Notes: generated by a model from the sequence alone, not told the origin. A stretch of DNA of 64,000 nucleotides from Rhodospirillales bacterium (GCA_003165335.1 PLTD01000217.1:6247-70246); one strand, 5' to 3'. Shown: positions 37,574-56,474, numbered from the stretch's first letter. Program-made: numbers and translations.

Positions 37574-38743
37574 TTACTCCGCAGCGATCGCGATCGTCGG
37601 CGATGCCTTGCCCGGCCGCTTCGCACGGAAATACGGGATCACGTAGCGGCCGATATTGGAGATCGTCTGCAACTGCGCCCATTGCGGCACAGTGCCCATC
37701 TGGCAGATGAAGAGTATTTCATCGGCCCCGGCCTCGATCAGCTTTTCGACATAGCCGATGCAATCCTCAACCGTGCCATAGGCATGGTTCGGGTTAGACA
37801 GCATCAGGCTGGGGTCGCTGAAATCGACCGTGATCTTTTCCGACGCCCACTGGGACTTGATCACGGTCTGGCCGGTCGTCGTCTCGACCGTGTCATCCGC
37901 GTCGGCCCAGGCGTTCCAATCGGGCAGCGGCCCGCCGCCGTTCCAATAGGTGATTGCCTCCATGAAGAAACGCTGGCCGCGGATACCGATCTTGCGAGCC
38001 TCTTTGCCATTATCCAGCACAATGGCGGGGCACAAGGCCGCCAGATGCTCGATCGGGCGGAACCCGACCTGCTCTTCAGGTTTGCGGCTGGCCCAGGCCT
38101 CGCGGTAGATGCGGTTCTTGTTGGCGACGTCGTCCGGCCCGCCGAAACCCAGCACCAGCGCACCCATGCCGCGCTTGCCAGCCTTGGTCAGCGTATCGGT
38201 GTTGGTACAGGCCAGATACATCGGGGGATGCGGATCCTGATAGGGCTTGGGATGGATCGGCCGCTTCGGGATGTCGATATATTTGCCGTGATGCTCGATT
38301 TCGTCCTGCACCATGATCTTGGGAATCAGGTACATGGATTCGTCGATCTGCTCCGGCAGGGTGTTCAGGTCATAGCCGAACGTGCCGGATTCCTGCTGCG
38401 TGCCACCCTTGCCAACGCCGAAATGAACACGGCCCTTCGACAAGATATCAAGGCAGCCGATGCGCTCCGCCACCTTGACCGGATGGTTCATGTTGGGCGG
38501 CAGGCAGACGACGCCATGGCCGATGCCGATGCGGCTGGTCTTGCCCGCGATGAAGGCCAGGAACGTCTCCGGCACGCTCATATGCGCGTAATAGGTCAGT
38601 GCCGTGTGTTCGACGCACCAGATGATGTCGAAGCCGACTTCCTCGGCCAGCATCACTTGCTCGACCATGTCATCGAAGACCTTGCGGTCGCCTGCCCGCG
38701 ATGCATCCGTCGTCTGGGCTTCATAAATCAAAGAAAATCGCAT
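37574..38743 (-). CDS. LLM-class (luciferase-like) flavin-dependent oxidoreductase
   Basis: 389 aa. MRFSLIYEAQ...AEEVGFDIIWCVEHT...GRVHFGVGKG is a typical luciferase-like monooxygenase pattern. Confidence 0.8.
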   Translation of the reverse strand: MRFSLIYEAQTTDASRAGDRKVFDDMVEQVMLAEEVGFDIIWCVEHTALTYYAHMSVPETFLAFIAGKTSRIGIGHGVVCLPPNMNHPVKVAERIGCLDILSKGRVHFGVGKGGTQQESGTFGYDLNTLPEQIDESMYLIPKIMVQDEIEHHGKYIDIPKRPIHPKPYQDPHPPMYLACTNTDTLTKAGKRGMGALVLGFGGPDDVANKNRIYREAWASRKPEEQVGFRPIEHLAALCPAIVLDNGKEARKIGIRGQRFFMEAITYWNGGGPLPDWNAWADADDTVETTTGQTVIKSQWASEKITVDFSDPSLMLSNPNHAYGTVEDCIGYVEKLIEAGADEILFICQMGTVPQWAQLQTISNIGRYVIPYFRAKRPGKASPTIAIAAE

Positions 38744-38878
38744 GTCCCTCTCCCGTCGGCGTATTCATTGCACAGAATGGGCATCGCGACCGCCGCGTCG
38801 CGCTTTCAATATTCAGCATTTGCGGTTTCGGGGCATCGTCTATTCGGGTGAGCCTGAAAGTCGCGCCCCGTTACGACG

Positions 38879-40144: not shown

Positions 40145-40161
40145 TGCCGCCCTCCCCTTTT

Positions 40162-40950
40162 TTATGGACGCTCTTTGAACGCCTTGAGCCAGCCCAAAGT
40201 CTCACCTGTCGGACCCGCCGGAAAATACTCCGCGCCATACCATCCGACATAGCCTTCCGCTTCCAGCGCTGCAAAGGCCGCCGGAAAGTCGATTGTCCCT
40301 GAACCCGGCTCCCGCCGGCCCGGCGCATCTGAGAACTGAACATGGCGGATCAGGTCACGGTACAAATCCGCCGCCTGCACCAGATCGTCGCCAGCGCAGG
40401 TTAGGTGATAGAGGTCGAACAATAGTCCCACCCGCCCGCCGAACCGGCGCCTCAATATATCGGCCGCCTTGCCGACGCTCTGAAACAATGCGGTCGGCGC
40501 GTCCAGCGGGTTCATTGGCTCAAGAACCAGCGTGAACGCCGCGCCATTGGCCTCGGACACCGCAGCCTCGGCATTGGCGACATAGGCATCCAGGCATTGC
40601 GACCGGCTGACACCCGATGGGATGCGCGAGGGGCCGAGATGGACAAACGACGCACCGAGCTGCGATGCGGCGTCGAAGGCATTGCCAACCGCGTCTCTAA
40701 ACGCCGCCTCGCGTCCGGGAACGCCCGACAGCCCGTTCCCGCCTTGCAGGTAATCCCCCATATCGACATTGACGAGCACCACATCGACACCGGCAGAGCG
40801 TGCGGCATCGGCCATCTCGCCCGCGTCCCCCTCGCTCAGCACCTGAATTTCGACGCCGTCGAAGCCTGCCGCCTTCGCGGCAGCAAATCGTTCGATCAGC
40901 GGTAACTCGCGGAACATGAAGCTGACGCTAGCTGAGAACTTGCGACCCAT
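40162..40950 (-). CDS. hydroxypyruvate isomerase family protein (xylose-isomerase-like TIM barrel)
   Basis: 262 aa from MGRKFSASVSFMFRELPLIERFAAAKAAGFDGVEI, aligning with the E. coli Hyi N-terminus (LRFSANLSMLF...FEKAAQCGFRGVEF). Confidence 0.65.
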   Translation of the reverse strand: MGRKFSASVSFMFRELPLIERFAAAKAAGFDGVEIQVLSEGDAGEMADAARSAGVDVVLVNVDMGDYLQGGNGLSGVPGREAAFRDAVGNAFDAASQLGASFVHLGPSRIPSGVSRSQCLDAYVANAEAAVSEANGAAFTLVLEPMNPLDAPTALFQSVGKAADILRRRFGGRVGLLFDLYHLTCAGDDLVQAADLYRDLIRHVQFSDAPGRREPGSGTIDFPAAFAALEAEGYVGWYGAEYFPAGPTGETLGWLKAFKERP

Positions 40951-40960
40951 TCTGCCTGGT

Positions 40961-42337
40961 TCAATCCAGCCGTAGGGCATAGGAGCGTGCGCGATCAGCC
41001 AGTTGGATGCGTCGCTGGAACGCCGACAGCAGTTGTACTTCCGAGGGCATGGCGCCCTTGAGCTGCGACAGTTTCACCACTTTGACCGAGCGGATCGCAT
41101 GATCCGGGGACACGGTCTTGTCAGTCAATTCCTGCCAGCGCAGAGTTATCAGCCCGGCATGCATGCCGACGCTATCGATCCAGTTACGATAACCCGGGTC
41201 GCGGGGGCATAGAACATAAGTAAAGCTGCCGTCGGCCGATGGTGCGGCCTGGTGGTTGTTCAGGCTGCTCGTGTGACGGATATAGTCCGGAGCGACACTC
41301 CAGGGATCGGCGATCTGAAAGCCCAGGTAGCGCGCGCCGGCCGGATCCAATGTCACGACCAGCGCCTCGTCCGGCTTCAGATCAAAGCGCGCCATAACGG
41401 CAAAGCCCCAACCTCCGTCGCGTCGGCGAGGCGTCTCGATCACATTGGCGGGATGGGCATAGATATAGTCATTGTCGAATTTCAGCCAGAACGGAACCAT
41501 GGAGCGCATCAGCTGGATCGCCTGCTCGGCAATGACCTTGTTCGTCGGTTGCGGCTTCAGCGGCGGACCGTCCGCACGCGCAACGGCAAGTCCGTTCGGT
41601 CGCTCTTTCGACCAATCCGACAGAGTGTCGCGCACGATCAATATCTCGTCGGGGTTGTCGCCGCTCTGAATATGGTTGCCCGGGCCATTCGCGCCATCGT
41701 GATCGATAGTGATTGTAAAAGACCCGTCTGACGCAACGGACAGGTCTCGCGCTGTCAGCGCGCCCAAGACTGGTGAACCTTCGAACACGGCCTGCTTTTC
41801 GGTACCGCCTGAGCCAGGACGGGTCTTATAGAGCGTAAAGCTCTCCTGAAGCGGCCCGTCCTGCCTGATTCTGCCGGTAATCGTGTAGCGCGCTGCGCCG
41901 TCTATCGGGATGTTTCGGTAGAAATTGTCCGGATTGTCGATGCCATGCCCGGACCCGGGAACATGCAGCGCGCGCCAGTCATGGGTGGCAGCGGTTGCCC
42001 AGCTGATTTTCGGTCGGTCCGGATCGTTATTGGCTGCCGCAAGTACTGACGCGAAGGCCACCGATCCCAAACCCGCTTCCAACCTTGCGCGTCCGTCCTG
42101 CTGACTCGCCTCGGGGTCCTCCACATACAGCGCGCGAAGCCTCGATTTTTCCGCCTGCACTGAAGGCATTGCGAACACGGCGACTGCCTGCCGATCGACC
42201 GCAACCTGGTCGTCTGAAATGGCCGCCGCGCCGATACCCGGGGCAAAACCGGCGAGGCTCAAACAAATCGTTACGGATGCCGCTCCAACTGATCGAATGC
42301 TGTTCAAGCTGTTTTCCCCGAATATGCGCGAGCCCAT
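40961..42337 (-). CDS. exported DUF1214-like protein (paralogue)
   Basis: 458 aa with a signal-like N-terminus. It shares blocks with the 38879 ORF: DNPDxxYxxxPI, GARYLGFQIADPWSVAP...DGSFTYVLCPRDPGYRNWIDSVGMHAGLITLRW. Confidence 0.45.
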   Translation of the reverse strand: MGSRIFGENSLNSIRSVGAASVTICLSLAGFAPGIGAAAISDDQVAVDRQAVAVFAMPSVQAEKSRLRALYVEDPEASQQDGRARLEAGLGSVAFASVLAAANNDPDRPKISWATAATHDWRALHVPGSGHGIDNPDNFYRNIPIDGAARYTITGRIRQDGPLQESFTLYKTRPGSGGTEKQAVFEGSPVLGALTARDLSVASDGSFTITIDHDGANGPGNHIQSGDNPDEILIVRDTLSDWSKERPNGLAVARADGPPLKPQPTNKVIAEQAIQLMRSMVPFWLKFDNDYIYAHPANVIETPRRRDGGWGFAVMARFDLKPDEALVVTLDPAGARYLGFQIADPWSVAPDYIRHTSSLNNHQAAPSADGSFTYVLCPRDPGYRNWIDSVGMHAGLITLRWQELTDKTVSPDHAIRSVKVVKLSQLKGAMPSEVQLLSAFQRRIQLADRARSYALRLD

Positions 42338-42480
42338 TCCTGCAGCCCTTGATCTATCTCATCGTCTCAGCGTTCCGCGACATATTCAATCTTGCGCTTG
42401 AAGCGGGCTTCTCTTGCGTCTTTTCTTGAGCCGGATTACGCCCATTGTTTAATGCGGGTCCAAGGACCGAAGAGGACATC

Positions 42481-43296
42481 ATGGACGATATTCCCTATCT
42501 CTTGCGCGGCATCACCCAGATGACGACAGCGTCGAGCACGTTGATCAGCTCATCGCGCTATCTGAACAGCCCGCGCATGCGCGAATGGGTGGCGCAGGAA
42601 CTGCTGCGCAAGAACGGACCGGACCTGCCGACGCCGTCGGGCGCTTTCCAACTCTCCTTCATCATCAAGGAGATGCAGAACTACGCCGAGATCGACGCGA
42701 TGATGGAGGAGGAACGCAAGCATAACGCAAAGCTGGACCGCTTCCTCTCCGAGCGTTTCGTCTCAAGCTACACGCTGGATGACCTGTCCAAATATCCGCA
42801 GGGGTCAGTGGCCGCCCAGTTCTACAAGCAGCTTCACGACGGCAATTACCAGGTCAATATCGTCCCGCCCTATGAGGCCAAAGGCAACTACGACTATTGG
42901 CTGCTCAGGTCCGGCCAGTCGCACGATCTGGAGCACATCATCACCTCGGGCGGGTTCGATTCTCTGGGCGAGGTCGTGGTCGGGCTAGCCAAGCTTGAGA
43001 ATATCTACAAGCATTTCAGCCCCGAGTTGGCGAACGAGCTGGCGGTCATGCAGTTCTTCACCTCGTTCCGCTTCATCTCGCGCATGGCCTGCCACTATCC
43101 CCATGTTTGGCACCACATGTGGGCGGCGGTCGACCGCGGGCGCAAGATCGGCACGGCGTCGGATTGCTATGTCATATCCAAGTACGAGGACGTCTTTCAC
43201 CTGACCCCGGCCGAGGCCCGCGAGGCGCTGGGAGTCCGCGAAGTTGAGGAGGTCGACACTGCAGCCGCCTCAGCCATCTGGGACGGTCGCGCCTGA
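42481..43296 (+). CDS. Coq4 family protein
   Basis: 271 aa from MDDIPY, with RBS GAAGAGGA upstream. It carries the Coq4 zinc-ligand motif HDLEH-x11-E (SHDLEHIITSGGFDSLGEVVV). Confidence 0.65.
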   Translation: MDDIPYLLRGITQMTTASSTLISSSRYLNSPRMREWVAQELLRKNGPDLPTPSGAFQLSFIIKEMQNYAEIDAMMEEERKHNAKLDRFLSERFVSSYTLDDLSKYPQGSVAAQFYKQLHDGNYQVNIVPPYEAKGNYDYWLLRSGQSHDLEHIITSGGFDSLGEVVVGLAKLENIYKHFSPELANELAVMQFFTSFRFISRMACHYPHVWHHMWAAVDRGRKIGTASDCYVISKYEDVFHLTPAEAREALGVREVEEVDTAAASAIWDGRA

Positions 43297-43452
43297 TCTG
43301 CCGCAAACAACCTGTTCGGCAGGCGCAATGGGACGGCTGGTCTTCGGATAATCGACGGCGGACCGTCGCCATAGCGACGAATTCGGATGCAACTCAGCAG
43401 CCGCATGTGAGCTTCGCGTAAAATCGGGACGCGGCGTTTGCGCGCCGGTTCT

Positions 43453-43481
43453 TTCACTTTGCGTTATATTTCTGCTAGAAT
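43453..43481 (+). promoter_or_regulatory. candidate sigma70-type promoter for cassette 2
   Basis: TTCACT (43453-43458), a 17-nt spacer, then TAGAAT (43476-43481), about 58 nt upstream of the ATG at 43540. This is a sequence match only. Confidence 0.3.
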
Positions 43482-43539
43482 AAACGGTCCGTGTATGCGC
43501 CCCGGAAGAAGCGTGGCGGCAGGTTTCGGGAGGGGCGCA

Positions 43540-44688
43540 ATGGCACGATTGAATTCGATCTTCTGTTCGGCGGCGGCGATGGCCGGCTTGCTGGCTCTTG
43601 GCGCGAACGCCTCGGCGGGTGAGGCCAAGGGCTTTGCGGTCACTTGGTTCCAGCCTGCCATGTACACGGCCGACGACGATTGCCCGGATGGCCTCAACAA
43701 ATCGCCTGATTTCAAAGCGATCTTCGCGGCTGAGGGCAAGACGCCTGAACAGATCAAGGATCTGATCGACCATCCCAATTCCAAGGAATTCGCCGACGCC
43801 GTAATCAATCGCGGTCCACACGGCGAGAATGTCTGCGCCGACCCGGCCTCGGCTCCCGACCCGGGCCAAAAGACGGTACAGGGTAAGATTGCTTTCGGCT
43901 TCAACCTCGATGGCAAGACCGATTCGGGCAGCACGCCTGCGCCCAACACCTGCGCACATGCCAAATTCACAAGCCCTGATGGAACGCCCGGCATCGACAA
44001 CCAGCATTATCGGGCTCTCGGCTGCATGATCGCGCTTCGCGGAAAACGCGGCCACGACGGGTTCGTGCTCAGCTACATCATGGAGCGGATGAAAGCCGAG
44101 GGCCTGCGGACCTATCTTATCGAGATCAAGGGAATAAATGATCCGAAAGACAATAAGGATGTTGAGGTCGGCGTCTATCTCGGCAGCGACCCTTTGGTAC
44201 TGGACGCCAAAGGCGAAGTCCGTCGCGACACGACGCAGCGGGTCAGTAAGGATGTACGCTGGCACAATGTTGTCCACGGCTCGATGAAGGACGGCGTCAT
44301 CACGACCGACGTCTTTGACCTGAACCTGCTGGGCGACCCAATCTGGGTGCCGGAGTTTCATTTCAAGCAGGCCAGGCTACAGCTTACGGTTCAACCGAAC
44401 GGAGACATCAAAGGTACGCTGGGCGGCTACCAGGATGTCATGACGATGTACTACAACACCGTGAAGTCCGGTATTTTGTTTGAGACGACCAACGCGGCCT
44501 CGTGCCCGGGCGTCTATTACGCGCTGAAAAGGCTGGCGGACGGATATCCCGACCCTAAGACGGGCGAGTGCACACAAATTTCCACCGATTTCAATATCGA
44601 GGCGATCCCGGCCTTCGTGCTGCATCAGCCCGGTGACACCGGAAAGACCAAGACAGCCCAAGCGACGCCCGCAGGCCATCAGGACTAG
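43540..44688 (+). CDS. exported protein of unknown family (cassette 2, gene 1; paralogue of 14251-15441)
   Basis: 382 aa from MARLNS, with RBS GGGAGGGG and a signal peptide ending ANASAG-EAKG. It shares conserved blocks with the cassette 1 protein. The 416-aa maximal ORF start is unlikely. Confidence 0.7.
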   Translation: MARLNSIFCSAAAMAGLLALGANASAGEAKGFAVTWFQPAMYTADDDCPDGLNKSPDFKAIFAAEGKTPEQIKDLIDHPNSKEFADAVINRGPHGENVCADPASAPDPGQKTVQGKIAFGFNLDGKTDSGSTPAPNTCAHAKFTSPDGTPGIDNQHYRALGCMIALRGKRGHDGFVLSYIMERMKAEGLRTYLIEIKGINDPKDNKDVEVGVYLGSDPLVLDAKGEVRRDTTQRVSKDVRWHNVVHGSMKDGVITTDVFDLNLLGDPIWVPEFHFKQARLQLTVQPNGDIKGTLGGYQDVMTMYYNTVKSGILFETTNAASCPGVYYALKRLADGYPDPKTGECTQISTDFNIEAIPAFVLHQPGDTGKTKTAQATPAGHQD

Positions 44689-44689
44689 C

Positions 44690-46339
44690 ATGAACAGAGT
44701 TTTAAAATTCGGCGTCGCAGCTGCGTTCGTCCTCGGCACGCTCGTCAGTTGCGGCAACAACGACGAACCGCAGTCTTCCGGCGGGCCTATCGTGGTCAGG
44801 CGGCTGACTCAAGAGCAATATCAGACGATCATTGCGGATATATTCGGCGCGGATATTAAGATCGGCGGCAGGTTCGAACCCGATCTACGCAAATCCGGAC
44901 TGCTCGCGATCGGAGCCGGTGAGGTCAGCGTTACACCGGCCGGCTTCGAGCAATATGACAGCATGGCGCGCGGTGCTGCCGGTCAGATCGTGGACGAACA
45001 GCACCGCGACATGCTGATCGGTTGTAAACCGGCGTCAGTGAAGGCGCCCGACGAGACATGCGCCAAATCCTTCTATTCCAAAGTCGGACGCCTCCTCTAC
45101 AGACGTCCCTTAACTGCGGACGAGCTCAACGCCCAACTGGCGATAGCCGATGCCGCCACTGTGAAACTCGGCAACTTCTATACCGGTCTGGCGATGGGCC
45201 TAACCGGGATGCTGGAAGCGCCGCAGTTCCTGTTTCGCCGCGAAGTCGCAGAAGCCGACCCCGACAATGCGGGACAACAGCGGCTGAACGCCTTTTCAAA
45301 GGCCACACGCCTCAGCTTTTTTCTATGGAACACCACGCCGGACGATGAGTTGTTGACCGCCGCCGAGAACGGCGATCTCAATTCGTCACGGGGGTTGGCC
45401 CGTCAAGCCGACCGCCTTATGGCTTCGCCCCGCCTCACCGCGGGAGCACGCGCTTTCTTCAACGATATGATGGGGTTCGACGCCTTCGCAGACCTGTCGA
45501 AAGACACGACGATCTATCCCAAGTTCACCAACGCCGTCATCGCTGACGCGCAGGAGCAGACCCTGCGAACAATCACGGACCATCTGCTGGTCGCAAAAGG
45601 TGACTACCGTGACCTCTTCACGACACGTAAAACATTCATGACGCCGCTGCTGGGAACGATTTATCGCGTGCCGGTTGAAACCCATGAAGGTTGGGAGGCA
45701 CATGAGTTTCCGGCAGACGATCCACGAGCCGGCCTACTGACACAAATCAGCTTCTTGTCGCTCCATTCCACGCCTGGCCGCAGTTCGCCCACAATCCGCG
45801 GCAAAGCGCTTCGTGAAGTTCTGCTTTGCGAAAAAGTGCCGGATCCGCCAGGCAACGTGAACTTCAATCTGGTTCAGGATACCAAGAACCCGCAATACCG
45901 CACAGCGCGGGCCCGGCTCAGCGCCCACGCGATCCAGGCCACCTGTAAGGGCTGCCACCGGCTGATCGACCCGATGGGGCTGGGGTTGGAGCAGTTCGAT
46001 TCGCTGGGCGAGTACCGCCCAACCGAAAACGAAACACCGATTGATGCCTCGGGTGAATTGGACGGAGTGAAATTCACCGACGCCGCCAGTCTCGGCCGCG
46101 CGCTGCACGACAATCCGGCTACGGCGTCCTGTCTGGTCAACAGGCTGTATGCCTATGCTGCTGGGCGCGCTGCGGGCAAGGGCGAGGCCGATTGGATGAA
46201 GTATCTCGACACCAGCTTCGCTGCCGATGGCTATCGTCTGCCCGCTCTGATGCACCGCATTGTGACCAGCGAAGCATTCTATCGGATTGCCGCTCCAGAA
46301 ACGGCCGCAGTCAGCTCAACCAAGGAGAGCGCTCAATGA
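44690..46339 (+). CDS. DUF1587/1592/1595/1588/1585 (PSD/PSCyt3-type) lipoprotein with CxxCH motif (cassette 2, gene 2)
   Basis: 549 aa from MNRVLK with a lipobox (LVSC-G), RRLTQEQYQTIIADIFG, LYRRPLTADEL, and QATCKGCHRLIDPMGLGLEQFDSLGEYR (CKGCH at 45944-45958). It starts 1 nt after the upstream TAG. Confidence 0.8.
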   Translation: MNRVLKFGVAAAFVLGTLVSCGNNDEPQSSGGPIVVRRLTQEQYQTIIADIFGADIKIGGRFEPDLRKSGLLAIGAGEVSVTPAGFEQYDSMARGAAGQIVDEQHRDMLIGCKPASVKAPDETCAKSFYSKVGRLLYRRPLTADELNAQLAIADAATVKLGNFYTGLAMGLTGMLEAPQFLFRREVAEADPDNAGQQRLNAFSKATRLSFFLWNTTPDDELLTAAENGDLNSSRGLARQADRLMASPRLTAGARAFFNDMMGFDAFADLSKDTTIYPKFTNAVIADAQEQTLRTITDHLLVAKGDYRDLFTTRKTFMTPLLGTIYRVPVETHEGWEAHEFPADDPRAGLLTQISFLSLHSTPGRSSPTIRGKALREVLLCEKVPDPPGNVNFNLVQDTKNPQYRTARARLSAHAIQATCKGCHRLIDPMGLGLEQFDSLGEYRPTENETPIDASGELDGVKFTDAASLGRALHDNPATASCLVNRLYAYAAGRAAGKGEADWMKYLDTSFAADGYRLPALMHRIVTSEAFYRIAAPETAAVSSTKESAQ

Positions 46340-47685
46340 ATTCCAACGCGCGCATGAACCGCCGCACCATCCTGCGTGGGATGTTAGGGGGCGCGGCAGT
46401 CAGCATGGGAATGCCGCTGCTCGATTGTTTTCTCAACACTAACGGCACGGCGCTGGCGTCCGGTGCGCCGCTGCCGGTCAGGTTCGGAACCTGGTTTTGG
46501 GGCTGCGGCCTTAACCCCGGCCGTTGGATTCCGCAGAAGATTGGAACCGACTACGATATGCCGGCCGAGATTAAAGTCTTGGCTCCATACAAGGACCGGC
46601 TCAGCGTTTTCAGCGGATTCAAGGCAATCGTCGACGGGAAGCCGGCCGTTGTCCACTATACGGGGTCGATGAGCATCCTGACCGGATCAGCTCCTAAGGA
46701 CATGCAGTCGGTCGAGGCGCCGACGATGGATACGTTCATTTCCGACGCAATCGGATCGACCACCCGATTCCGGTCCCTGGAACTCGCAGCCACCGGCAAC
46801 CCACGCGACAGCAACAGCCGCCGCAGCTCCAGCGTCATCAATCCGGCAGAAGGCTCACCTCTCGCTTTTTATACGCGGTTGTTCGGCCCGGACTTCAAAG
46901 ACCCCAACGCCGCTGATTTCGTGCCCGACCCCGCTGTGATGGTTCGCCAAAGCGTACTGTCGGCGGTAACCGAACAGCGCCAAACAATTCTTGCTGGGCT
47001 CGGCTCGGCCGATAAGGCGCGCATGGATCAGTACTTCACCTCGGTACGGCAACTCGAACAACAGCTTGCCCTGCAATTGCAAAAGCCCGCCCCGCTGGAG
47101 GCATGCACCAAACCGGGTCAACCAAGCTGGAGCGAGACCAAGGAAAACACCCAGATCGACGTCGTTACCGCCAACCACAAGCTGATGGCCGGTCTATTGG
47201 CCCAGGCATTGGCCTGCGACCAGACAAGGGTCTTCAATATGGCCTTCGGCGACGCGACCTCATCGTTGCGCAAAGCGGGCAGCACGGTGACCCATCATCA
47301 GCTGACTCACGAGGAACCGATCGACGAAAAGCTCGGCTATCAACCGGAGGCCACCTTCTTCGTCGACCGGATTATGGAGGGTTTGCTGACGATGGTGACA
47401 GCGTTGGATTCGGTTAAGGAAGGCGATGGCACTCTCCTCGACCACACTTTGATGCTCGCTCACAGCGAATGCAGCTATGCCAAGATCCACTCGCTTGAGA
47501 CCCTTCCAATGTTTATAGCCGGCCGAGCCGGCGGGAAGATCAAGAGCGGCCTGCATATCGACGGCAATGGCGATTCCGTGACCCGCGTCGGCCTCACGAT
47601 ACAGCAAGCCCTTGGGCTGCCACTGAACAAATGGGGCACTGGGTCGATGGAAACGTCCAAAACCGTCGGCGAGATCATGGCGTGA
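46336..47685 (+). CDS. DUF1552 family protein, twin-arginine exported (cassette 2, gene 3)
   Basis: 449 aa from MNSNARMNRRTILRGMLGGAAVSMGMPLLDCFL, with VTHHQLTHEE. Its start overlaps the upstream stop as ATGA, the same junction as in cassette 1. Confidence 0.8.
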   Translation: MNSNARMNRRTILRGMLGGAAVSMGMPLLDCFLNTNGTALASGAPLPVRFGTWFWGCGLNPGRWIPQKIGTDYDMPAEIKVLAPYKDRLSVFSGFKAIVDGKPAVVHYTGSMSILTGSAPKDMQSVEAPTMDTFISDAIGSTTRFRSLELAATGNPRDSNSRRSSSVINPAEGSPLAFYTRLFGPDFKDPNAADFVPDPAVMVRQSVLSAVTEQRQTILAGLGSADKARMDQYFTSVRQLEQQLALQLQKPAPLEACTKPGQPSWSETKENTQIDVVTANHKLMAGLLAQALACDQTRVFNMAFGDATSSLRKAGSTVTHHQLTHEEPIDEKLGYQPEATFFVDRIMEGLLTMVTALDSVKEGDGTLLDHTLMLAHSECSYAKIHSLETLPMFIAGRAGGKIKSGLHIDGNGDSVTRVGLTIQQALGLPLNKWGTGSMETSKTVGEIMA

Positions 47686-47720
47686 CCTTGGTACATAAGG
47701 CGTATTTCAGGAAGACAGAG

Positions 47721-48533
47721 ATGCGAAGGATTTTGCTGACGAGCGCAATCGCCGTCGGGTTGTTCACTGCCGGCGGCGCGGGTGCCGATACATCTGTCGC
47801 GCCGGACAATTCAGCAACAGCCCCCGGCGTCATTACGACCCAACTCGTTCCCGGTGGCGCGGTCTTGGCCGACGTGATGGGCCACACGATCTATACGTAC
47901 GACCGGGACACCAAACCTGGAAAATCGTCCTGCATCGAAGCCTGCGCCCAGGATTGGAAGCCGCTTCCCGCCGCTTGGCTCGCCAATCCAGCGGGCGACT
48001 GGTCGGTCATCACCCGCGAAGACGGCAGCAGACAATGGGGATATAAGGGTAAGCCGCTTTATACGTTTTCGGGCGACCACAAGGCGGGCGATACGAACGG
48101 CGAGGGTGCTGACAATAGCTGGCGCGCGGTCGTCACCGCCCGAAAGTTCCTGCCTCCCAAGGTTGCGATCTGGCACAGCGATTTCGGTCCGGCCTTTGCG
48201 ACAACGGATGGCAAAACTCTTTATGTCCTCGCGGAATTGCACTTCAACCCATTAGGCACGAAACGACACACCGGCCCCAATATCGGCCTGACGGATTGCA
48301 CCGCTGAATGCACGAAGACTTGGGTTCCGTTCAAAGCCCCCGCTGACGCTGTGGCGGCGGAGGACTGGTCGATCGTCACGCGCGACGACGGGACCCGGCA
48401 ATGGGCCTATAAGGACTGGCCGGTCTACACAAATGTGCAGGATTCGAAGGCCGGGGACACGCTTGGCGAAGGTATAAGCACTCTTAAGACAGGAATTACC
48501 GGCCTGTCCTGGCAAGTGGCCACCCTGCTCTAG
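47721..48533 (+). CDS. COG4315 / Lipoprotein_15 secreted-repeat protein (cassette 2, gene 4)
   Basis: 270 aa from MRRILL, with a signal peptide. It has two repeat pairs: HTIYTYDRDTKPGKSSCIEACAQDWKPLPA...DGSRQWGYKGKPLYTFSGDHKAGD and ...TDCTAECTKTWVPFKAP...DGTRQWAYKDWPVYTNVQDSKAGD. Confidence 0.7.
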   Translation: MRRILLTSAIAVGLFTAGGAGADTSVAPDNSATAPGVITTQLVPGGAVLADVMGHTIYTYDRDTKPGKSSCIEACAQDWKPLPAAWLANPAGDWSVITREDGSRQWGYKGKPLYTFSGDHKAGDTNGEGADNSWRAVVTARKFLPPKVAIWHSDFGPAFATTDGKTLYVLAELHFNPLGTKRHTGPNIGLTDCTAECTKTWVPFKAPADAVAAEDWSIVTRDDGTRQWAYKDWPVYTNVQDSKAGDTLGEGISTLKTGITGLSWQVATLL

Positions 48534-48578
48534 TCCAGCGTTTTCGAGAAACCAGCATATCTGGCACTCTATAATTCG

Positions 48579-49112
48579 ATGGTCACCATGTCGAAAGCAT
48601 TTGCCGTGCGGTCTATGGGGCTGCCGAATGTCGAAGATTACCGAACCATCCGGTTATCTGCTTTAAAAACCGCACCGGAAGCGTTCGGCTCAGTTCATGC
48701 CATAGAAGCCTCCAAGCCTATCGAGGAGCATGCGGAACGGCTTACCTCATCGCTCGTGTTCGGCGCCTATGACGACGATCAAATCGTGGGTATGGTTGGC
48801 TTGAAAGCCGAAAAAGGGCCCAAGGACGCCCACAAAGGCTTTATGAGGGGGGCTACATCGAACCCGAATATAAGGAAATGCCGTATTGGATCAGCCTTAG
48901 TTTCCGCTCTCTTGAAAGCTGCACACGGCGTAGTCGAGCAAGTGACGCTGTCGGTGGTAGCGGAGAATGCAGCCGCCATCGCCTTGTATGAGGAATTCGG
49001 ATTCACAAGATACGGCATTGAACCAAGAGCGCTGAAAACACCGGCGGGTTATTCCGACGAGGTTCTGATGGTCTTGTTCCTTGGAGCGCAAACGCCTCGC
49101 TCGGGTTTCTAG
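48579..49112 (+). CDS. GNAT family N-acetyltransferase (possible compensated frameshift in motif A region)
   Basis: 177 aa with ...RKCRIGSALVSALL...VVAENAAAIALYEEFGFTRYG. Residues MRGATSNPNI (about 48843-48872) look out of character, and the alternative frame over the same bases reads YEGGYIEPEYKE. Confidence 0.6.
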   Translation: MVTMSKAFAVRSMGLPNVEDYRTIRLSALKTAPEAFGSVHAIEASKPIEEHAERLTSSLVFGAYDDDQIVGMVGLKAEKGPKDAHKGFMRGATSNPNIRKCRIGSALVSALLKAAHGVVEQVTLSVVAENAAAIALYEEFGFTRYGIEPRALKTPAGYSDEVLMVLFLGAQTPRSGF

Positions 49113-49211
49113 AGCCGCTTTCCACCCGCTGTGGGTATTGGACCCGGCCACAGGTTATCCTCGTCTCTGGTAGGTTCGGCTTTTTGGAAACGATGAACTC
49201 GGAATTCGAGG

Positions 49212-50657
49212 TCAGCTGGTCGGAGCCCAGGGTTCTTCAGGTCCGGGATCCGGGCCATAGATTTGCGCGTCTGCCTCAGCAGCCAATTGCATTTCGGCAA
49301 TATATGTGTCGAGCGTGCCCGACCGCGCAGCCTCGCGCTCGAACATGCGCCATAGGATCGGCATTGCTTTGAAAGTTACCGCGGCACCGATTGCACCGAT
49401 GATCGGGTCGGTAAAATCGGGGCGAAGCCCAGCTGTCATCAATCGGCCGAGCTCCATCAGCAACGACAGGCCAAATGCGAGGCCTGCCGAAAAAGTGGCA
49501 CCCTTCGACCAGAAGCCGCGGCGTAGCCAGACCATGACGCCGATGGGTGCGAACAACAGGAACTCCACAACAAAACTCTGCGTCGCATGCGCCTTGCTGA
49601 CGATATAAAAGTTCCAGAAAGGCAAAAACTGCCGAATAGTCAGCCCATGCACCCCCTCGTCGATGGTCCACCACTCTCTGCTTAAAAGCCCGCTGACAAA
49701 CATCACCAGAACCACATAAACCGGGATCGCGAACGGCAGGAAACGCGAAAAATAATAATGCCGTTTGCGCAGGTCTTTACCCTTTAGGCGCTGAATAAAC
49801 TGCAAACCGATGGCCACGCCGATTATGCGATAAATCAGTGAAATCAAGAACGGGGACGCACTCAGCACAAACATCTGCAGGATGAAGACGAAAAAAATCA
49901 GACCAAAAGCACGCCGTAAAAGTGAATTGAATGACCGCTCCCGGTCCCAGACCGCCAGAAACATACCCAAGGGTGCAGTCGACAATATCTCCGCCAGCGT
50001 GACGAGAAACTGGTAAGCGGCAGGGTGCCCTTCACCCGGTGTCGCCACCAGTATTCCAGGCAATTCGATAAGGCGACCGGCCAAATCGCCTAGGCTCAAA
50101 GTAAAATCGAAGGGCGTCAGAAAATAGCCGATCAGCCAGACGGAATAAGCCCCCAGGACGATCGTCAATCCATCGCCAGCGGCGAATTGGCTTACAAGTG
50201 CAGGGTAAAGTCGGGTGTGCGAAAGCCAAAATACCGCAATCCCCAGTACTGCGCCGATCGTTTGCGCCGTGATGTAATTCAGCGTTACCGTGCGCGGGGG
50301 AAAGAACAACTGGGTATATTTGACGGCGAGAATAAATAGGACACAGACGATCAGGGTGGAGAAACTCCCGATCGCATCGCGGCTTTTGTTGCCGCCTGGA
50401 CTGAATGCGCTGTTCAGGAAATACGCCAATGGTATCGGCATCAGCATATTGGCGATCCAGTCGGCGCGCTGATCAGAGCCGTGATGGACAAATCGGACAG
50501 CCATGAATTTTTGCCAGGCCTGATCGGGGCTGATCGCGACATAGTGCAACCCTGCGGGTCCGAGCACCAAGCTGCTATAAATGATACCCAGCGCATAAAG
50601 CGCTGCCAGTAACAGGAAATGATCACGCCGCAGGCCGATCATAGGGCCACAACCCAA
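49212..50657 (-). CDS. polytopic membrane protein, possibly VanZ-like (two halves)
   Basis: 481-aa ORF that is hydrophobic throughout, with at least 10 segments. The VanZ-like assignment rests only on weak recollection of the pattern. The start could be at MIGLRR (50642). Confidence 0.35.
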   Translation of the reverse strand: MGCGPMIGLRRDHFLLLAALYALGIIYSSLVLGPAGLHYVAISPDQAWQKFMAVRFVHHGSDQRADWIANMLMPIPLAYFLNSAFSPGGNKSRDAIGSFSTLIVCVLFILAVKYTQLFFPPRTVTLNYITAQTIGAVLGIAVFWLSHTRLYPALVSQFAAGDGLTIVLGAYSVWLIGYFLTPFDFTLSLGDLAGRLIELPGILVATPGEGHPAAYQFLVTLAEILSTAPLGMFLAVWDRERSFNSLLRRAFGLIFFVFILQMFVLSASPFLISLIYRIIGVAIGLQFIQRLKGKDLRKRHYYFSRFLPFAIPVYVVLVMFVSGLLSREWWTIDEGVHGLTIRQFLPFWNFYIVSKAHATQSFVVEFLLFAPIGVMVWLRRGFWSKGATFSAGLAFGLSLLMELGRLMTAGLRPDFTDPIIGAIGAAVTFKAMPILWRMFEREAARSGTLDTYIAEMQLAAEADAQIYGPDPGPEEPWAPTS

Positions 50658-50818
50658 ATCACCGGATTGCGATTAACCGACATGAGCAATTCTCTCGCTT
50701 CTATCCATTTTCTACGGATAACGCAGAAGTGGGATAAAAACCAGCAGAACACCCGAGGCGCCGCTGCGGATATCGCGTCTTGCCTGCATGTTCAAACCGC
50801 GCTTAGTTGCCAAATCTC

Positions 50819-51514
50819 ATGAACATCAACCATTCGATTCCCCTCGGGAGCACGACCCTACTAGCCGACCTCAACGGGGCGTTGATGTGGACCGAGGAAG
50901 CAACATTGATTGTTGCCGATCTGCATCTTGAGAAAGGCTCGAGCTATGCCGGGCGCAATCGCCCCCAGTTCCTGCCACCCTACGATAGTCGCGCCACGAT
51001 CGAGCGGCTAGAGGCGCTTCTCGCACGCTACGAGCCGAAGCGCGTTATCTGCCTTGGAGATTCGGTACATGATTCCGATGGGGCCCAGCGAATGGCCGCA
51101 GAGGACACTAACCGGGTCACTGCCATGACCGGTAGCCGTGACTGGATCTGGATAGCAGGCAACCATGACCCCGTACCGCCATCATGTTGGGGCGGCGCCG
51201 TCTTGCATGAAGTTTCGATCGGCAACATCGTGCTCCGACATCAGGCGAGAACGATGATGCCGGAAGATGAGACTTATGAAATTTCAGGTCATTTCCACCC
51301 GACGGCATCTGTCACTACCAGATCCGCAAAAATCTCTGCGCGTTGTTTTGCGAGCGACAAACGGCGTCTGTTGATGCCCGCTTTCGGAGCCTACGCCGGC
51401 GGGCTTAACGTTCTCGACCCCGCCATCACGGCCTTGTTCGGTCTGGTTTTTAACGTTGTGATGCTTGGACGAAGGCGTCTCTTCGCATTTTCCAGCGCCA
51501 GTCTGAGGGCATGA
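50819..51514 (+). CDS. pdeM: ligase-associated DNA damage response endonuclease/phosphoesterase PdeM
   Basis: 231 aa from MNINHS. LIVADLHLEKGSSYAGRNRPQFLPPYDSRATIERL...RVICLGDSVHD...AGNHDP...GHFHP fits the PdeM calcineurin-like pattern. Confidence 0.75.
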   Translation: MNINHSIPLGSTTLLADLNGALMWTEEATLIVADLHLEKGSSYAGRNRPQFLPPYDSRATIERLEALLARYEPKRVICLGDSVHDSDGAQRMAAEDTNRVTAMTGSRDWIWIAGNHDPVPPSCWGGAVLHEVSIGNIVLRHQARTMMPEDETYEISGHFHPTASVTTRSAKISARCFASDKRRLLMPAFGAYAGGLNVLDPAITALFGLVFNVVMLGRRRLFAFSSASLRA

Positions 51515-51518
51515 CCTG

Positions 51519-53072
51519 GTGGCGCTGATCCGACGATCGGGCAATATCGGCAGCGCCATTGCGGGACCGAGCGCTCCGCCGAATAAAACCCTGATCACCC
51601 TCATTTTGATGCTTTCGACCGTGATGCAGGCGGTCGACACGACAATCGTCAATGTCGCCCTACCGCACATGGAAGGAAGCCTGGGTGCCACGCAGGATCA
51701 AGTTTCCTGGGTATTGACCTCATATATCGTGGCGGCGGCAATAATGACCCCCGCCACCGCATGGCTCGCTGGACGATTTGGTCGGACCTATTTGCTGGTT
51801 GTATCCCTGGTGGGCTTTACGGTTGTGTCCCTATTCTGCGGCGTCGCAGGTTCGATCAGCCAAATGGTATTTTTCCGAATATTGCAGGGCGTATTCGGAG
51901 CGTCGCTGATGCCTTTGTCCCAAGCAATATTGCTCGACACGCACTCCCGGGCGGAAATGGGCAGAGCCATGGCGATTTGGGGCGTGGGGGTTATGGTCGC
52001 CCCTATCCTGGGGCCCACATTGGGGGGCTATCTGACAGAGGAATACAGCTGGCGCTGGTGCTTCTACATCAATCTACCGATCGGGATACTGACCGTCCTT
52101 GGGACGATGACCTTCATTCCGGAATCCGTCAAAGTTCGGGATCGAAAGTTCGATTGGTTTGGCTTTTCATTTTTAAGCCTCGCTATTGCCTCGCTTCAAC
52201 TCGCACTGGATCGGGGTGAACAACTTGGTTGGTTCGCGTCGGCTGAGATCGAAATTGAAGTCGCGTTGGCCGTATTCGGCATTTATATGTTCGTGGTGCA
52301 CAGCCTAACGGCGCAACGCCCGTTTATTGACCTTGCCCTCTTTCGTGACCGCAATTTCGTTCTTTGCATCGTCCTGGCCATTGTAACGAACCTCGTATTT
52401 AACGGATCCTTCGTTCTGTCGCCGCAATTATTGCAAACAGAACTCAATTATCCGGTCGTGACGGCCGGCCTGGTAATGGGGCCTAGGGGCTTTGGAACCA
52501 TCGCAGCAATGCTGCTTTTCGGCCGCGTATCCAATCGGATCGATCCGCGCCTGCTCATTTTTGTCGGTCTGAGCACCGTCGGTTGGACGATGTACGCAAT
52601 GTCGGGATGGTCGCTCGAAATTGGAGCCAAACAGTTCATCGAATTGGGGCTGATCCAGGGATTCGGCATGGGCCTATCCTTCGTACCGATGACCACCTTG
52701 GCGTTCTCCACCCTTCCCGTCGGTCTGCGGACCGAAGCCTCAGGATTCTATGCGCTCGTCCGCAATGTCGGAGGCGCAATCGGCATTTCGATCGTGATAT
52801 CCCGCCTCTCGGAGCTCACCCAATCCAACCATGCCCATCTAGGGGAGTTCATGACGCAGTTCCGCCATCTGTCCGCTGCGCATGGAATGTCGGGCCGCGC
52901 TTCGATCGAGATGCTTAATCTCAGCATTACGCGACAGGCCGGCATGATCGCATATGTAAATGTCTTTCGCCTTCTGGCGATTCTGTGTGTTGTCGCTGCA
53001 CCGCTGTTGCTGTTGATCAGGGCACAACCGCCTGCGGGTCGCTCAGGGGCCGCCGGCGCGTCCGCTCACTGA
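51519..53072 (+). CDS. MFS transporter, DHA2 (EmrB/QacA, 14-TMS) family
   Basis: 517 aa with a GTG start. It has MQAVDTTIVNVALPHMEGSLGAT, LAGRFGR and FRILQGVFGA, with about 14 hydrophobic segments. Confidence 0.8.
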   Translation: MALIRRSGNIGSAIAGPSAPPNKTLITLILMLSTVMQAVDTTIVNVALPHMEGSLGATQDQVSWVLTSYIVAAAIMTPATAWLAGRFGRTYLLVVSLVGFTVVSLFCGVAGSISQMVFFRILQGVFGASLMPLSQAILLDTHSRAEMGRAMAIWGVGVMVAPILGPTLGGYLTEEYSWRWCFYINLPIGILTVLGTMTFIPESVKVRDRKFDWFGFSFLSLAIASLQLALDRGEQLGWFASAEIEIEVALAVFGIYMFVVHSLTAQRPFIDLALFRDRNFVLCIVLAIVTNLVFNGSFVLSPQLLQTELNYPVVTAGLVMGPRGFGTIAAMLLFGRVSNRIDPRLLIFVGLSTVGWTMYAMSGWSLEIGAKQFIELGLIQGFGMGLSFVPMTTLAFSTLPVGLRTEASGFYALVRNVGGAIGISIVISRLSELTQSNHAHLGEFMTQFRHLSAAHGMSGRASIEMLNLSITRQAGMIAYVNVFRLLAILCVVAAPLLLLIRAQPPAGRSGAAGASAH

Positions 53073-53129
53073 TTAATTCCACACCGGCGCCATTGACCCG
53101 CGACATTCGCGGCTTAGGTCGCATATCTC

Positions 53130-54556
53130 ATGGCAAATACACCGGACCCCACCCTTATCTGGTTCCGGCAAGATCTACGCGTCGAGGACAATCCGGCATT
53201 GATCGCCGCTTCGAGCTTCGAGGTTCCGATTCTGGCTATTTACGTACTGGATAACGAAACACCCGCTCCCTGGGCCATCGGCGGTGCCGCGCGGTGGTGG
53301 CTGCATCACAGCCTGAAGTCGCTGGCCGCGACGCTCAAAACCTACGGCATCGCGCTGATCCTGCGGCGGGGACGGGCAGAAACAATAATCCCGCAGGTTG
53401 CCCGCCAAATCTCCGCCGGAGCCGTCTATTGGAACCGCTGCTATGAGCCATTTGCGATTGCGCACGACACGGCAATAAAAGCCGGTCTTCGCGATTTCGG
53501 CATAGAAGCGCAAAGTTTCAGCGCTTCCCTGCTGTCGGAGCCTTGGACAATCAAGACACAGTCCGGGACACCCTTCCGCGTATTCACGCCATATTGGCGA
53601 GCATTGTCCAAAGACGTGCGAATTCCCCGCCCCCTAAAGGCGCCTTCTATCAATCAAAAGCCTCAACCGGCGGCGGGCGATCGATTGGAAGACTGGAATC
53701 TCCTCCCGACGCACCCGAACTGGGCAGAGAGATTTTCTGACAATTGGACGCCCGGCGAAGCGGGCGCGCAAAATCAGTTGAAACTGTACATTGAGGATGC
53801 CCTCGTCGACTATCCCGAGACCCGCAATCTGCCCGGTGTCAATGGCGTCTCACGACTGTCGCCCTATCTGCATTGGGGCGAAATCTCAATTCGCCAAGTC
53901 TGGAATGCAATCGCCCTGCATGCCGGTGCCGGGGCGGACGCCTATCTCAGGGAGTTGGCTTGGCGGGACTTTGCGCATCATCTGCTTTGGCAATTCCCGG
54001 AGCTGCCCCAAAAGCCATTCGCCGAGCGTTTCAGCGCTTTTCCCTGGCGAACCGACGCGAAGGCTCTGAGAGCTTGGCAGCAGGGGCGAACAGGCTATCC
54101 GATCGTCGATGCTGAGATGAAACAGCTTTGGGCTACTGGCTGGATGCACAACCGCGTGAGAATGGTCGTCGCGTCATTTCTGGTGAAGCATCTGTTGATT
54201 TCCTGGCGTGCTGGAGAGGATTGGTTCTGGGATTGTCTTGTCGATGCCGACCTCGCCAATAACGCAATGAACTGGCAATGGGTTGCCGGATCGGGGGCTG
54301 CGCGGCGCCTTATTACCGAATCTTCAATCCGGTGCTGCAAGGCGAAAAATTCGACGAAGACGGTCGCTATGTCAGACTATGGGTGCCTGAGATCGCAACT
54401 TTGCCTAATTCATGGATTCACAAACCTTGGATGGCTCCCCCCGATATTCTGTTTAGGGCAAATATTCGCCTGGGCGACAACTACCCCGAACCCATCGTCG
54501 ATCACGCGGCGGCCCGATCACGCGCTCAATCCGCCCTGGAAAATCTCCTACGCTGA
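53130..54556 (+). pseudogene. phrB: deoxyribodipyrimidine (CPD class I) photolyase carrying a 1-nt frameshift
   Basis: The N-terminal frame (TLIWFRQDLRVEDNPAL...NWQWVAGSG) runs into nonsense-like sequence after about 54298. The conserved C-terminus (AAPYYRIFNPVLQGEKFDEDGRYVRLWVPE...YPEPIVDH) continues in the +1 frame (ORF 54278-54556). Restoring one nt (GC to GAC, Asp) gives a 475-aa protein. Confidence 0.8.
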
Positions 54557-54663
54557 CACGGGCGGGACCAAACTGTCGCCGTTCCCGGCTTGGTATTCCC
54601 CGTGAACAGGAATTATACTGTCCCTAATTCGATCAAGAGCAAGTCGTTGCCGAACCGCAGATA

Positions 54664-55620: not shown

Positions 55621-55874
55621 GTGACTTGGGGCAAAGAATACCGCGTCCAAGCGTCGCAATCTTCGTCAGCAACCAAAATGGCTCAATCTTTCTCGATATC
55701 GCTGAATTCAGTCAAAACTTACTGATCGTCGGGCGATCGTGTAGCGACTTAAAAAGCACAACTTTGCGGATATGAAACCGAGTATCAGGTCAGGGGGACT
55801 GGCATTGTCACGCGGCCTGTCGCATATGTTGCCCGATCCGCGAATCAATGTGGCGGGTGGCCCTGGAGCGTTCT

Positions 55875-56210
55875 ATGCCTTATATTGTCACTGAATCCTG
55901 CATCAAGTGTAAGTACACCGACTGTGTTGAAGTTTGCCCCGTCGATTGCTTCTACGAAGGCGAGAATATGCTGGTCATTCATCCTGACGAGTGTATCGAC
56001 TGCGGTGTTTGCGAACCAGAATGCCCGATCGAGGCGATCGTGCCGGACAGCGACCCCCGCGCCGAGGCCTTGGCCGAAATGAATCGTGATTACTCAGAGA
56101 TATGGCCCAATATCACCCGTAAGAAGCCGGCACCGGCAGATGCAGACGCCTGGAAAGATGTCGCCAATAAATATGCCGATCAGTTCAGCCCGAAACCCGG
56201 CAGCAATTGA
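55875..56210 (+). CDS. fdxA: 7Fe ferredoxin (3Fe-4S + 4Fe-4S)
   Basis: 111 aa beginning [29 protein letters not shown]...[14 protein letters not shown], the Azotobacter-type FdxA Cys pattern. Confidence 0.9.
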
Positions 56211-56290
56211 GCCAGATATTGCGAACATTCCGGGTTGGCTCTAAGCTCTAACTCTTTCCGAAACTGAAAACATTTGCGAGCGTTGCATTC

Positions 56291-56319
56291 TTGTAACAGT
56301 CGCAGTTTTCAGGTATAAT
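56291..56319 (+). promoter_or_regulatory. candidate sigma70-type promoter for carD
   Basis: TTGTAA (56291-56296), a 17-nt spacer, then TATAAT (56314-56319). It would give a leader of about 150 nt containing three stem-loops. Confidence 0.4.
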
Positions 56320-56474
56320 CATCGTTTAGGTCGATCGTCGGTTCCTGCTCCGCCTAACATACGGCGGGCGGACTTCGCTCATTCATAGCGAAGCGTCCGG
56401 ACTCGCTTTATGAGCGAGCCCATAGGGAGGAATTGCACTCAACCTGTTCGTTCGGACAAGGATAAGCGCAATCT

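Follow-up and report, generated by a model that had tools for sequence, protein, structure and literature searches.

A diverged second copy of a four-gene DUF1552 cassette in a Rhodospirillales bacterium and its possible role in a periplasmic complex linked to electron carriers

A stretch of 64,000 nucleotides from a Rhodospirillales bacterium (GCA_003165335.1, PLTD01000217.1:6247-70246), referred to here as the window, contains two copies of a four-gene cassette. The copy at 43453-48533 (cassette 2, or copy 2) is an intact, translationally coupled operon under selection. Its genes, designated g1 to g4 (g1' to g4' in cassette 1), encode a protein of an uncatalogued family, a PSCyt3/PSD protein with a CxxCH motif, a DUF1552 protein and a PF03640 repeat protein, respectively. 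All four products are predicted from their sequences to be exported: g1 and g4 via Sec, g2 as a lipoprotein and g3 via the twin-arginine translocation (Tat) pathway. Gene fusions and neighbouring genes in related cassettes suggest that the proteins act together in a periplasmic complex linked to electron carriers, and it is plausible that the two paralogues have different substrates. Copy 2 may depend on genes elsewhere or may be regulated unlike copy 1. The genes of the two cassettes are as follows.

43540-44688, plus strand: g1, 382 amino acids (aa), predicted Sec-exported protein of an uncatalogued family
44690-46339, plus strand: g2, 549 aa, predicted lipoprotein with PSCyt3/PSD domains and one CxxCH motif
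46336-47685, plus strand: g3, 449 aa, DUF1552 (HXXSHH) protein, predicted Tat substrate
47721-48533, plus strand: g4, 270 aa, predicted Sec-exported PF03640 (COG4315, 'Lipoprotein_15') repeat protein
9856-11133, minus strand: g4', 425 aa, PF03640 protein
11232-12569, minus strand: g3', 445 aa, DUF1552 Tat protein
12566-14257 (or 14251), minus strand: g2', 563 aa in the public gene call, PSCyt3/PSD lipoprotein
14251-15441, minus strand: g1', 396 aa, exported protein of an uncatalogued family

The open reading frames (ORFs) of cassette 2 are present where a preliminary description of this DNA had placed them, in the same order as those of cassette 1, and the products of 382, 549, 449 and 270 aa are reproduced by public gene calls that were made independently on the same DNA, an ENA metagenome contig of 102,199 bp to which the window corresponds in reverse. 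The gene junctions were read directly. Between g1 and g2 the sequence is TAG-c-ATG, which places the g2 start 1 nt past the g1 stop, and g2 and g3 share an ATGA overlap. Cassette 1 shows a TAATG overlap at g1'/g2' followed by an ATGA overlap. The junction architecture is thus preserved between the copies, as had been described, with a 1-nt or TAATG arrangement at the first junction and ATGA at the second. The start of g2' is ambiguous, with in-frame ATGs at 14275, 14257 and 14251, the second being that of the public call; of the three, 14251 alone gives a typical lipoprotein signal peptide together with the TAATG overlap with the g1' stop.

A genome collection was scanned with a 7-sequence g1 alignment, taking one genome per species, which yielded 79 loci, and the cassette content of the loci was parsed by tblastn with the window proteins. 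The loci belong to uncultured Alphaproteobacteria (Rhodospirillales/Rhodospirillaceae), Gammaproteobacteria (Steroidobacteraceae, Cellvibrionaceae), Rhodobacterales and some bins labelled Marinimicrobia; the cassette also occurs in cultured sphingomonads. Each copy has its own orthologues, 67-90% identical in protein, in other species-level genomes. The copy-2 orthologues comprise three loci with all four genes (L001, L002 and L005) and one that is partial because of a contig end (L003), and the copy-1 orthologues are L007, L009, L010, L012, L013, L015 and L016. Relative to the orthologues, the ratio of nonsynonymous to synonymous substitution rates (dN/dS) is 0.04-0.13 for all eight genes of both cassettes. 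The preliminary description had left room for a disabling lesion overlooked in one copy; none was found, the ORFs being intact and of orthologue-like length.

The proposal that the four proteins work as a unit, first made from the retention of two full sets, is strongly supported by gene order, by the 1-nt and 4-nt junctions, by correlated divergence and by gene fusions. Among the 83 cassettes that are not cut by a contig end, 53 keep the order g1-g2-g3-g4, in both Alpha- and Gammaproteobacteria; 13 cassettes have no g4, and three have g1 and g4 only. The g2 and g3 genes adjoin in nearly all loci. Divergence is correlated among g1, g2 and g3, their pairwise distances giving r values of 0.73-0.86. 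Fusions of g1 with g2 or g4 occur in several independent lineages. Those of g1 with g2 (P0264, 933 aa; P0317, 963 aa; loci L048, L065 and L066) all keep the CxxCH motif, and six clusters join g1 to PF03640 repeats, several of them being found on multiple contigs from different sources. The reverse fusion, g4-g1, is present in P0374 and corresponds to the arrangement g4-g1-g2-g3 of Novosphingobium sp. RL4.

Electron carriers are encoded next to the cassette in several groups. A HiPIP gene is the immediate upstream neighbour of g1 throughout the copy-1 clade, as well as in another group to which L059 belongs. Both L059 and Sphingobium herbicidovorans MH have a class II cytochrome c gene directly past g3. 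In the two cultured sphingomonads, S. herbicidovorans and Novosphingobium sp. RL4, the gene that follows the carrier encodes a membrane cytochrome b561 (PF01292). The commonest neighbours are TonB-dependent receptors, with 31 of 80 loci encoding one at a distance of up to 6 kb. Fusions of a pyrroloquinoline quinone (PQQ) dehydrogenase with a cupredoxin domain are found near the cassette in 11 of the 80 loci, and directly past g4 in L083 (12225-14372). Also recurrent are CHRD-domain proteins, which are encoded in 18 loci and mostly lie between the two members of a tandem pair, and TetR regulators, in 12 loci.

The sphingomonad cassettes reside on megaplasmids or chromids, namely L086 (S. herbicidovorans pMSHV, 40150-58902, genes B6S01_RS14745-14760) and L087 (Novosphingobium sp. 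RL4, 1313202-1332197). After each comes a carrier gene, for class II cytochrome c or HiPIP, and next a cytochrome b561 gene. The annotation of pMSHV splits g1 into two hypothetical proteins, possibly because of a frameshift.

In the window, the surroundings of the two cassettes contain the following features.

15489-15779, minus strand: HiPIP gene, directly upstream of cassette 1
15933-16628, plus strand: TetR-family regulator, divergent from the HiPIP gene and cassette 1
17471-19522, minus strand: PQQ-dehydrogenase with a C-terminal cupredoxin domain, upstream of cassette 1
37574-38743, minus strand: luciferase-like monooxygenase, from the public gene call
42445-43296, plus strand: Coq4-like gene, directly upstream of cassette 2 (Pfam score 21.3, cut-off 22.9)
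43432-43447: terminator-like hairpin, just before the promoter-like site
43453-43481, plus strand: promoter-like site TTCACT-17-TAGAAT, about 60 nt 5' of g1, on weak evidence

The HiPIP gene upstream of g1 and the divergent TetR gene are present in copy 1 and in all seven of its orthologues. Cassette 2 had been described as lacking both, and neither flanks copy 2 or its orthologues L001, L002 and L005; its flanks are instead Coq4-like, GNAT acetyltransferase and VanZ-like genes. Having no carrier or regulator of its own, copy 2 would have to rely on one from another site, such as the HiPIP encoded beside copy 1. A scan of the region for promoters and terminators returned no more sites than in shuffled sequence, and a search upstream of both cassettes for an operator-like inverted repeat found none. 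The position of the Coq4-like gene is kept in the copy-2 orthologues (the gene cluster is present in 5 loci, and L001 and the window are confirmed) and not elsewhere. The longest plus-strand ORF at 37682-38851 was discarded as spurious, because the public call places the luciferase-like monooxygenase on the minus strand there.

The DUF1552 protein g3 scores 168.1 bits against PF07586, and g3' scores 152.3 bits (cut-off 30). PF07586 is the sole family reported for g3, which has no match to the Sulfatase Pfam family. The N-terminal Tat motif, a twin-arginine followed by a hydrophobic stretch, is NRRTILRGMLGGAAV, with the twin-arginine signal NRRTILRG, and the two arginines are invariant in alignments of homologues. 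Further invariant residues are D100, H107, D226, E241, C257, C294, H321, H325, E362, D369, H385 and H407. The AlphaFold2 (AF2) model of g3 is mediocre, with a predicted local distance difference test (pLDDT) score of 65 and a predicted TM-score (pTM) of 0.68. In a Foldseek search with this model, the top 50 PDB matches all belong to the alkaline-phosphatase superfamily, with E values down to 1.8e-5 and probabilities up to 1.0; they include S1 sulfatases, choline sulfatase, phosphonate monoester hydrolases, iPGM, LtaS and MCR-1. An hmmsearch of g3 against PDB sequences returned nothing. The formylglycine motif C/S-x-P-x-R was sought in g3 and is absent; the sole candidate, GCGLNPGR, contains C57, which is less than 90% conserved. 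Because the model is mediocre and neither a sulfatase signature nor a profile signal accompanies it, the weakly modelled alkaline-phosphatase/sulfatase-like fold of g3 is treated as a lead of moderate confidence.

Both g2 and g2' have the domain order PSD3-PSD5-PSD4-PSCyt3-PSD2, with all five domains above the Pfam gathering cut-offs, and g2 has in addition a sub-threshold match to PSD1 (E 0.009). The single CxxCH, the haem-c motif, reads CKGCH in g2. Across g2 homologues, CxGCH is invariant (66 of 66), as is a His located six residues before it. The lipobox of g2 is LVSC, and a lipobox is found in 44 of the 66 homologues.

Against PF03640, g4 and g4' score 141.9 and 142.8 bits, respectively (cut-off 24.4). 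The last gene had been reported to differ in repeat number between the cassettes, and the two products (270 and 425 aa) do contain two and three units: g4 has two C-x3-C...W-x-P units and g4' has three Cys-pair...W/F-x-P units, in one of which the cysteines are more widely spaced and in two of which F replaces W. Scores against the SCO0930 family (NCBIfam NF040526) are 107.7 and 130.8 bits for g4 and g4', below the curated cut-off of 275. The N-terminus of g4 contains no lipobox cysteine and reads as a Sec signal.

The g1 protein has no match in Pfam or NCBIfam, and a relaxed Pfam scan of 48 g1 homologues, with E values up to 1, gave scattered noise only. The family is large, with 824 homologues in a collection clustered at 90%, every one of which is named 'hypothetical', and 1847 representatives at 50% clustering. 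The predicted signal peptide ends in ANASA, immediately before GE, and the conserved features are C48, C162, GFNLDG, IDNQxYRxxGC and ADGYPDPKTGxCTxIS. The AF2 model is confident (pLDDT 88, pTM 0.85). Foldseek with this model found nothing significant in the PDB (best E 0.026, TM-score 0.15) and likewise nothing in BFVD. PDB sequence searches with the g1 family profile, with g2, g3 and g4, and with the g3 profile identified no relative of a solved structure.

Some g1 homologues depart from this pattern. P0313 and P0376 have a signal peptide followed by an N-terminal Hcp-like domain (Pfam T6SS_HCP, at threshold), and P0261 has a different N-terminal extension of 190 aa. A reading of g1 as an effector of the type VI secretion system, raised by P0313 and P0376, was set aside in view of the signal peptides and of a Pfam match that is only at threshold. 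A solo g1 homologue, with no g2, g3 or g4, is present in L088 (Sphingobium sp. TomTYG65 plasmid, 738192-739442), where it adjoins LysR, GMC-oxidoreductase and zinc-dependent alcohol dehydrogenase (Zn-ADH) genes. About nine more solo g1 genes are found among the species-genome loci, and some of these may be parsing artefacts.

We put at roughly even odds a reading in which the cassette encodes a periplasmic redox-linked substrate-processing module whose four proteins, g1 to g4, form one complex. The Tat-exported g3, which would probably contain metal and have an alkaline-phosphatase-like core, would be the catalytic subunit, and g2 would be its membrane-tethered mono-haem c-type partner. The remaining two proteins, g1 with a predicted fold that has no known analogue and g4, would be accessory subunits that bind each other and g2, and they may confer substrate recognition. 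The module would act on a substrate that enters the periplasm, often through a neighbouring TonB-dependent receptor, and would exchange electrons with small high-potential carriers, namely HiPIP, class II cytochrome c and cupredoxin domains. In some genomes these carriers would hand electrons to a membrane cytochrome b561. Paralogues would probably serve different substrates or conditions. A bolder form of the proposal describes a new kind of periplasmic redox enzyme complex with a Tat-exported catalytic DUF1552 subunit built on an alkaline-phosphatase-like scaffold, a tethered PSCyt3/PSD mono-haem cytochrome and two accessory subunits, one of which would have a fold absent from the PDB; with HiPIP or cytochrome c as intermediate, electrons would reach cytochrome b561 or terminal oxidases. 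We consider this form possible but doubtful.

Several observations weigh against the redox-linked module. The g3 model, at pLDDT 65, reaches TM-scores of only 0.37-0.40 against its alkaline-phosphatase-superfamily matches, and hhalign of the g3 family with a genuine sulfatase gives no signal (probability 0.3%). The haem on g2 is assumed from the CxxCH motif. Characterised enzymes of the alkaline-phosphatase fold are, to our knowledge, hydrolases, transferases and mutases rather than redox enzymes, and a literature search on DUF1552, DUF1592, PSCyt3, DUF1501 and PSCyt1/2 found no functional study. Electron-carrier genes adjoin only about 15 of about 83 loci, and none lies beside copy 2. The neighbours of the cassette are also heterogeneous, including short-chain dehydrogenase/reductase, Zn-ADH, FAD-enzyme, acyl-CoA dehydrogenase and CHRD genes, so that no substrate can be named.

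The main rival to the redox-linked module is purely hydrolytic nutrient scavenging, which we judge unlikely. In that case, g3 would be a sulfatase- or phosphatase-like esterase acting on organic esters imported through TonB receptors, with release of sulfate, phosphate or the carbon skeleton; g1, g2 and g4 would have non-redox binding or anchoring roles, and the haem would be structural or regulatory. Such a function agrees with the Foldseek placement of g3 among S1 sulfatases, choline sulfatase, phosphonate monoester hydrolases and iPGM, with TonB receptors as the commonest neighbours and with the lack of an adjacent electron carrier in most loci, and Tat export is common among periplasmic phosphatases. 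However, g3 itself lacks the Sulfatase match, the C/S-x-P-x-R motif and profile similarity to a genuine sulfatase, and the CxxCH motif of its partner is invariant family-wide. In addition, several distant lineages have genes for HiPIP, cytochrome c and cytochrome b561 in or beside the operon, and a role that involves no electron transfer would hardly account for this.

A further alternative, which we regard as very improbable, is that the cassette is not itself catabolic and instead handles a metal or cofactor in the maturation of periplasmic redox enzymes such as the PQQ-dehydrogenase-cupredoxin protein. The recurrence of the cassette beside genes for this dehydrogenase, HiPIP and TonB receptors would fit such a system, as would the paired cysteines in the g4 repeats and the conserved Asp/Asn/Gly loops of g1, which may be reminiscent of Ca-binding sites. 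Against it, the dehydrogenase is found near only the 11 of 80 loci mentioned above and is missing from copy 2, up to eight or more paralogues per genome would be unusual for a maturation factor, and the Pfam, NCBIfam, PDB sequence and Foldseek searches found no similarity to a known metallochaperone.

Of the known systems closest to the cassette, the first is a gene pair of the Planctomycetes-Verrucomicrobia-Chlamydiae (PVC) bacteria. The PSCyt3/PSD and DUF1552 domains were first described in Rhodopirellula baltica. Their pairing in Planctomycetes and Verrucomicrobia has been called intriguing and is uncharacterised (PMC5615132). The g2 and g3 proteins are clear members of this pair (PF07626/37/31/27/24 and PF07586): their genes are adjacent and co-directional, the CxxCH is kept, and, as in PVC bacteria, there are many copies per genome. 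In contrast to the PVC pair, the cassettes described here occur in Alpha- and Gammaproteobacteria, have g1 upstream and g4 downstream, sometimes as fusions, and are linked to genes for HiPIP, cytochrome c and cytochrome b561. A literature search with these domain names found no paper on the four-gene proteobacterial form, the fusions or the electron-carrier link, and one on PF03640/COG4315 and bacterial CHRD domains gave nothing usable among the matches looked at. A second PVC pair, DUF1501 with PSCyt1/PSCyt2/DUF1549/DUF1553, also combines a Tat-signal sulfatase-like protein with a large 'planctomycete cytochrome c' protein and is highly expanded (see also PMC5615132). Its Pfam families are different, g2 showing only the sub-threshold PSD1 match. 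We know of no g1 or g4 partners for it.

The possible likeness of g3 to the alkaline-phosphatase superfamily (S1 sulfatases, phosphonate monoester hydrolases, iPGM, LtaS/EptA) lies in the predicted core fold and in conserved His/Asp clusters that are compatible with a metal site. In contrast to members of that superfamily, g3 lacks Pfam or profile similarity, the CxPxR motif and an acidic residue ending the first strand, and it has a long helical insertion (residues 212-293) and an obligate cytochrome-type partner. MsrPQ and the gamma subunits of formate dehydrogenase and hydrogenase exemplify periplasmic oxidoreductases coupled to a cytochrome b561-type membrane subunit (PF01292). The sphingomonad cassettes resemble these in combining a Tat-exported putative catalytic subunit, soluble or tethered carriers and a PF01292 cytochrome in one operon. 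However, g3 is unrelated to their catalytic subunits, with no molybdopterin, Fe-S or Ni-Fe domain, and the window cassettes have no cytochrome b561 gene. The cassette loci also recall TonB-receptor-centred loci similar to polysaccharide utilization loci, being paralogous and numerous, with their own receptor, a TetR/AraC/LysR regulator and variable catabolic enzymes, but a SusD-like gene is absent and the core consists of four proteins of no assigned function instead of glycoside hydrolases.

The two cassettes of the window are divergently oriented, with g1 starts about 28 kb apart, as first described. By BLASTP, identity between the copies is 41% for g1 (E 5e-84), 58% for g2 (E 0), 63% for g3 (E 0) and 36% for g4 (E 3e-43). 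All four alignments span essentially the whole proteins, so the similarity extends beyond signal peptides and low-complexity regions, and the value for g3 agrees with the estimate by eye that the DUF1552 pair is identical at well over half of its positions. The first-gene pair had been singled out as much more diverged; it is indeed only 41% identical, but the most diverged pair is g4 rather than g1. At the DNA level, a single blastn match (65% over 2.5 kb) and no megablast match were found between the copies. The dS between them is 1.8-3.6 and is thus saturated, so that dN/dS between the paralogues is uninformative.

These values, together with the separate orthologues of each copy and their shared synteny in a related genome, bear out the earlier suggestion of an old paralogy. 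In OZ255631.1, the complete chromosome of a related 6 Mb genome, both orthologous cassettes are present in divergent orientation about 30 kb apart with syntenic flanks, which indicates that the arrangement is older than the divergence of these species. Whether the two copies are sisters, a question left by the preliminary description, was addressed with a neighbour-joining tree of 191 DUF1552 proteins, which carries no support values. They are not: the smallest clade with both copies takes in 129 of the 191 sequences, many other cassettes among them. Copy 2 joins its own orthologues first, then clades at 70-79% identity, and the copy-1 clade only later; one of the 70-79% clades has the four-gene cassette followed by a PQQ-dehydrogenase-cupredoxin gene. 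The family is multi-copy, with at least four cassettes in OZ255631 and at least eight in the metagenome-assembled genome (MAG) DATGMP. From the tree position and this copy number, the two copies are best seen as two members of an old expansion rather than a sister pair, and since the family is routinely multi-copy, the paralogy itself is unremarkable.

The non-sister position of the copies in the tree would also be expected if both had been gained independently by horizontal transfer instead of by duplication within the lineage, and related cassettes are carried on sphingomonad megaplasmids, one of them conjugative. We consider independent transfer improbable. Both copies and their flanks are syntenic in the related complete chromosome, the orthologues of each copy occur in the same set of related MAGs, the GC content and third-position GC content (GC3) of both cassettes are like those of the remainder of the window, and tandem duplicated cassettes are common in the family; the tree that separates the copies has, as stated, no support values. 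That copy 2 is an assembly repeat or a decaying, non-functional pseudo-operon has a negligible probability, with nothing found in its favour, given the 65% DNA identity with no megablast match, the intact ORFs, the low dN/dS (0.05-0.13) and the occurrence of the identical g3 protein on 5-6 independent contigs. Recent duplication is rejected as well on the DNA identity and the saturated dS, as the preliminary description had argued for both duplication and assembly repeat.

Further cassettes were noted. OZ255631.1, the closest complete genome, has a third one, L019 (2167962-2189068), with g1-g2-g3 and no g4, about 45 kb past the copy-2 orthologue, and a fourth elsewhere, L036 (6002053-6023150). 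By analogy, the 33 kb of the source contig that lie past window position 64000 (ENA ERZ27254231 k141_1774556, positions 1-32786) might hold the equivalent of L019. Tandem double cassettes, with g1-g4 present twice, were seen in L020, L040, L044, L046, L047, L049, L051, L068, L070 and L078, mostly from Gammaproteobacteria (Steroidobacteraceae) and Rhodospirillaceae MAGs, often with a CHRD-domain gene between or beside the cassettes.

DUF1552 and PSCyt3/PSD are among the large conserved secreted families of environmental bacteria to which no function has been assigned. The proteobacterial cassettes extend the known gene pair to a fixed four-gene unit, with fusions that speak for a physical complex and with a repeated linkage to electron carriers and TonB receptors, so that an anonymous pair of genes becomes a testable proposal, a periplasmic redox-linked processing module. 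The g1 protein offers a structural target, with a confidently predicted model and no analogue in the PDB, and the presence of the cassette in the cultured S. herbicidovorans MH and Novosphingobium sp. RL4 makes genetics feasible. If the redox-complex reading is true, the 'planctomycete-specific' PSCyt/DUF1552 families, which are highly abundant in PVC bacteria and environmental metagenomes and have had no function assigned since they were described in 2004, would gain their first functional handle.

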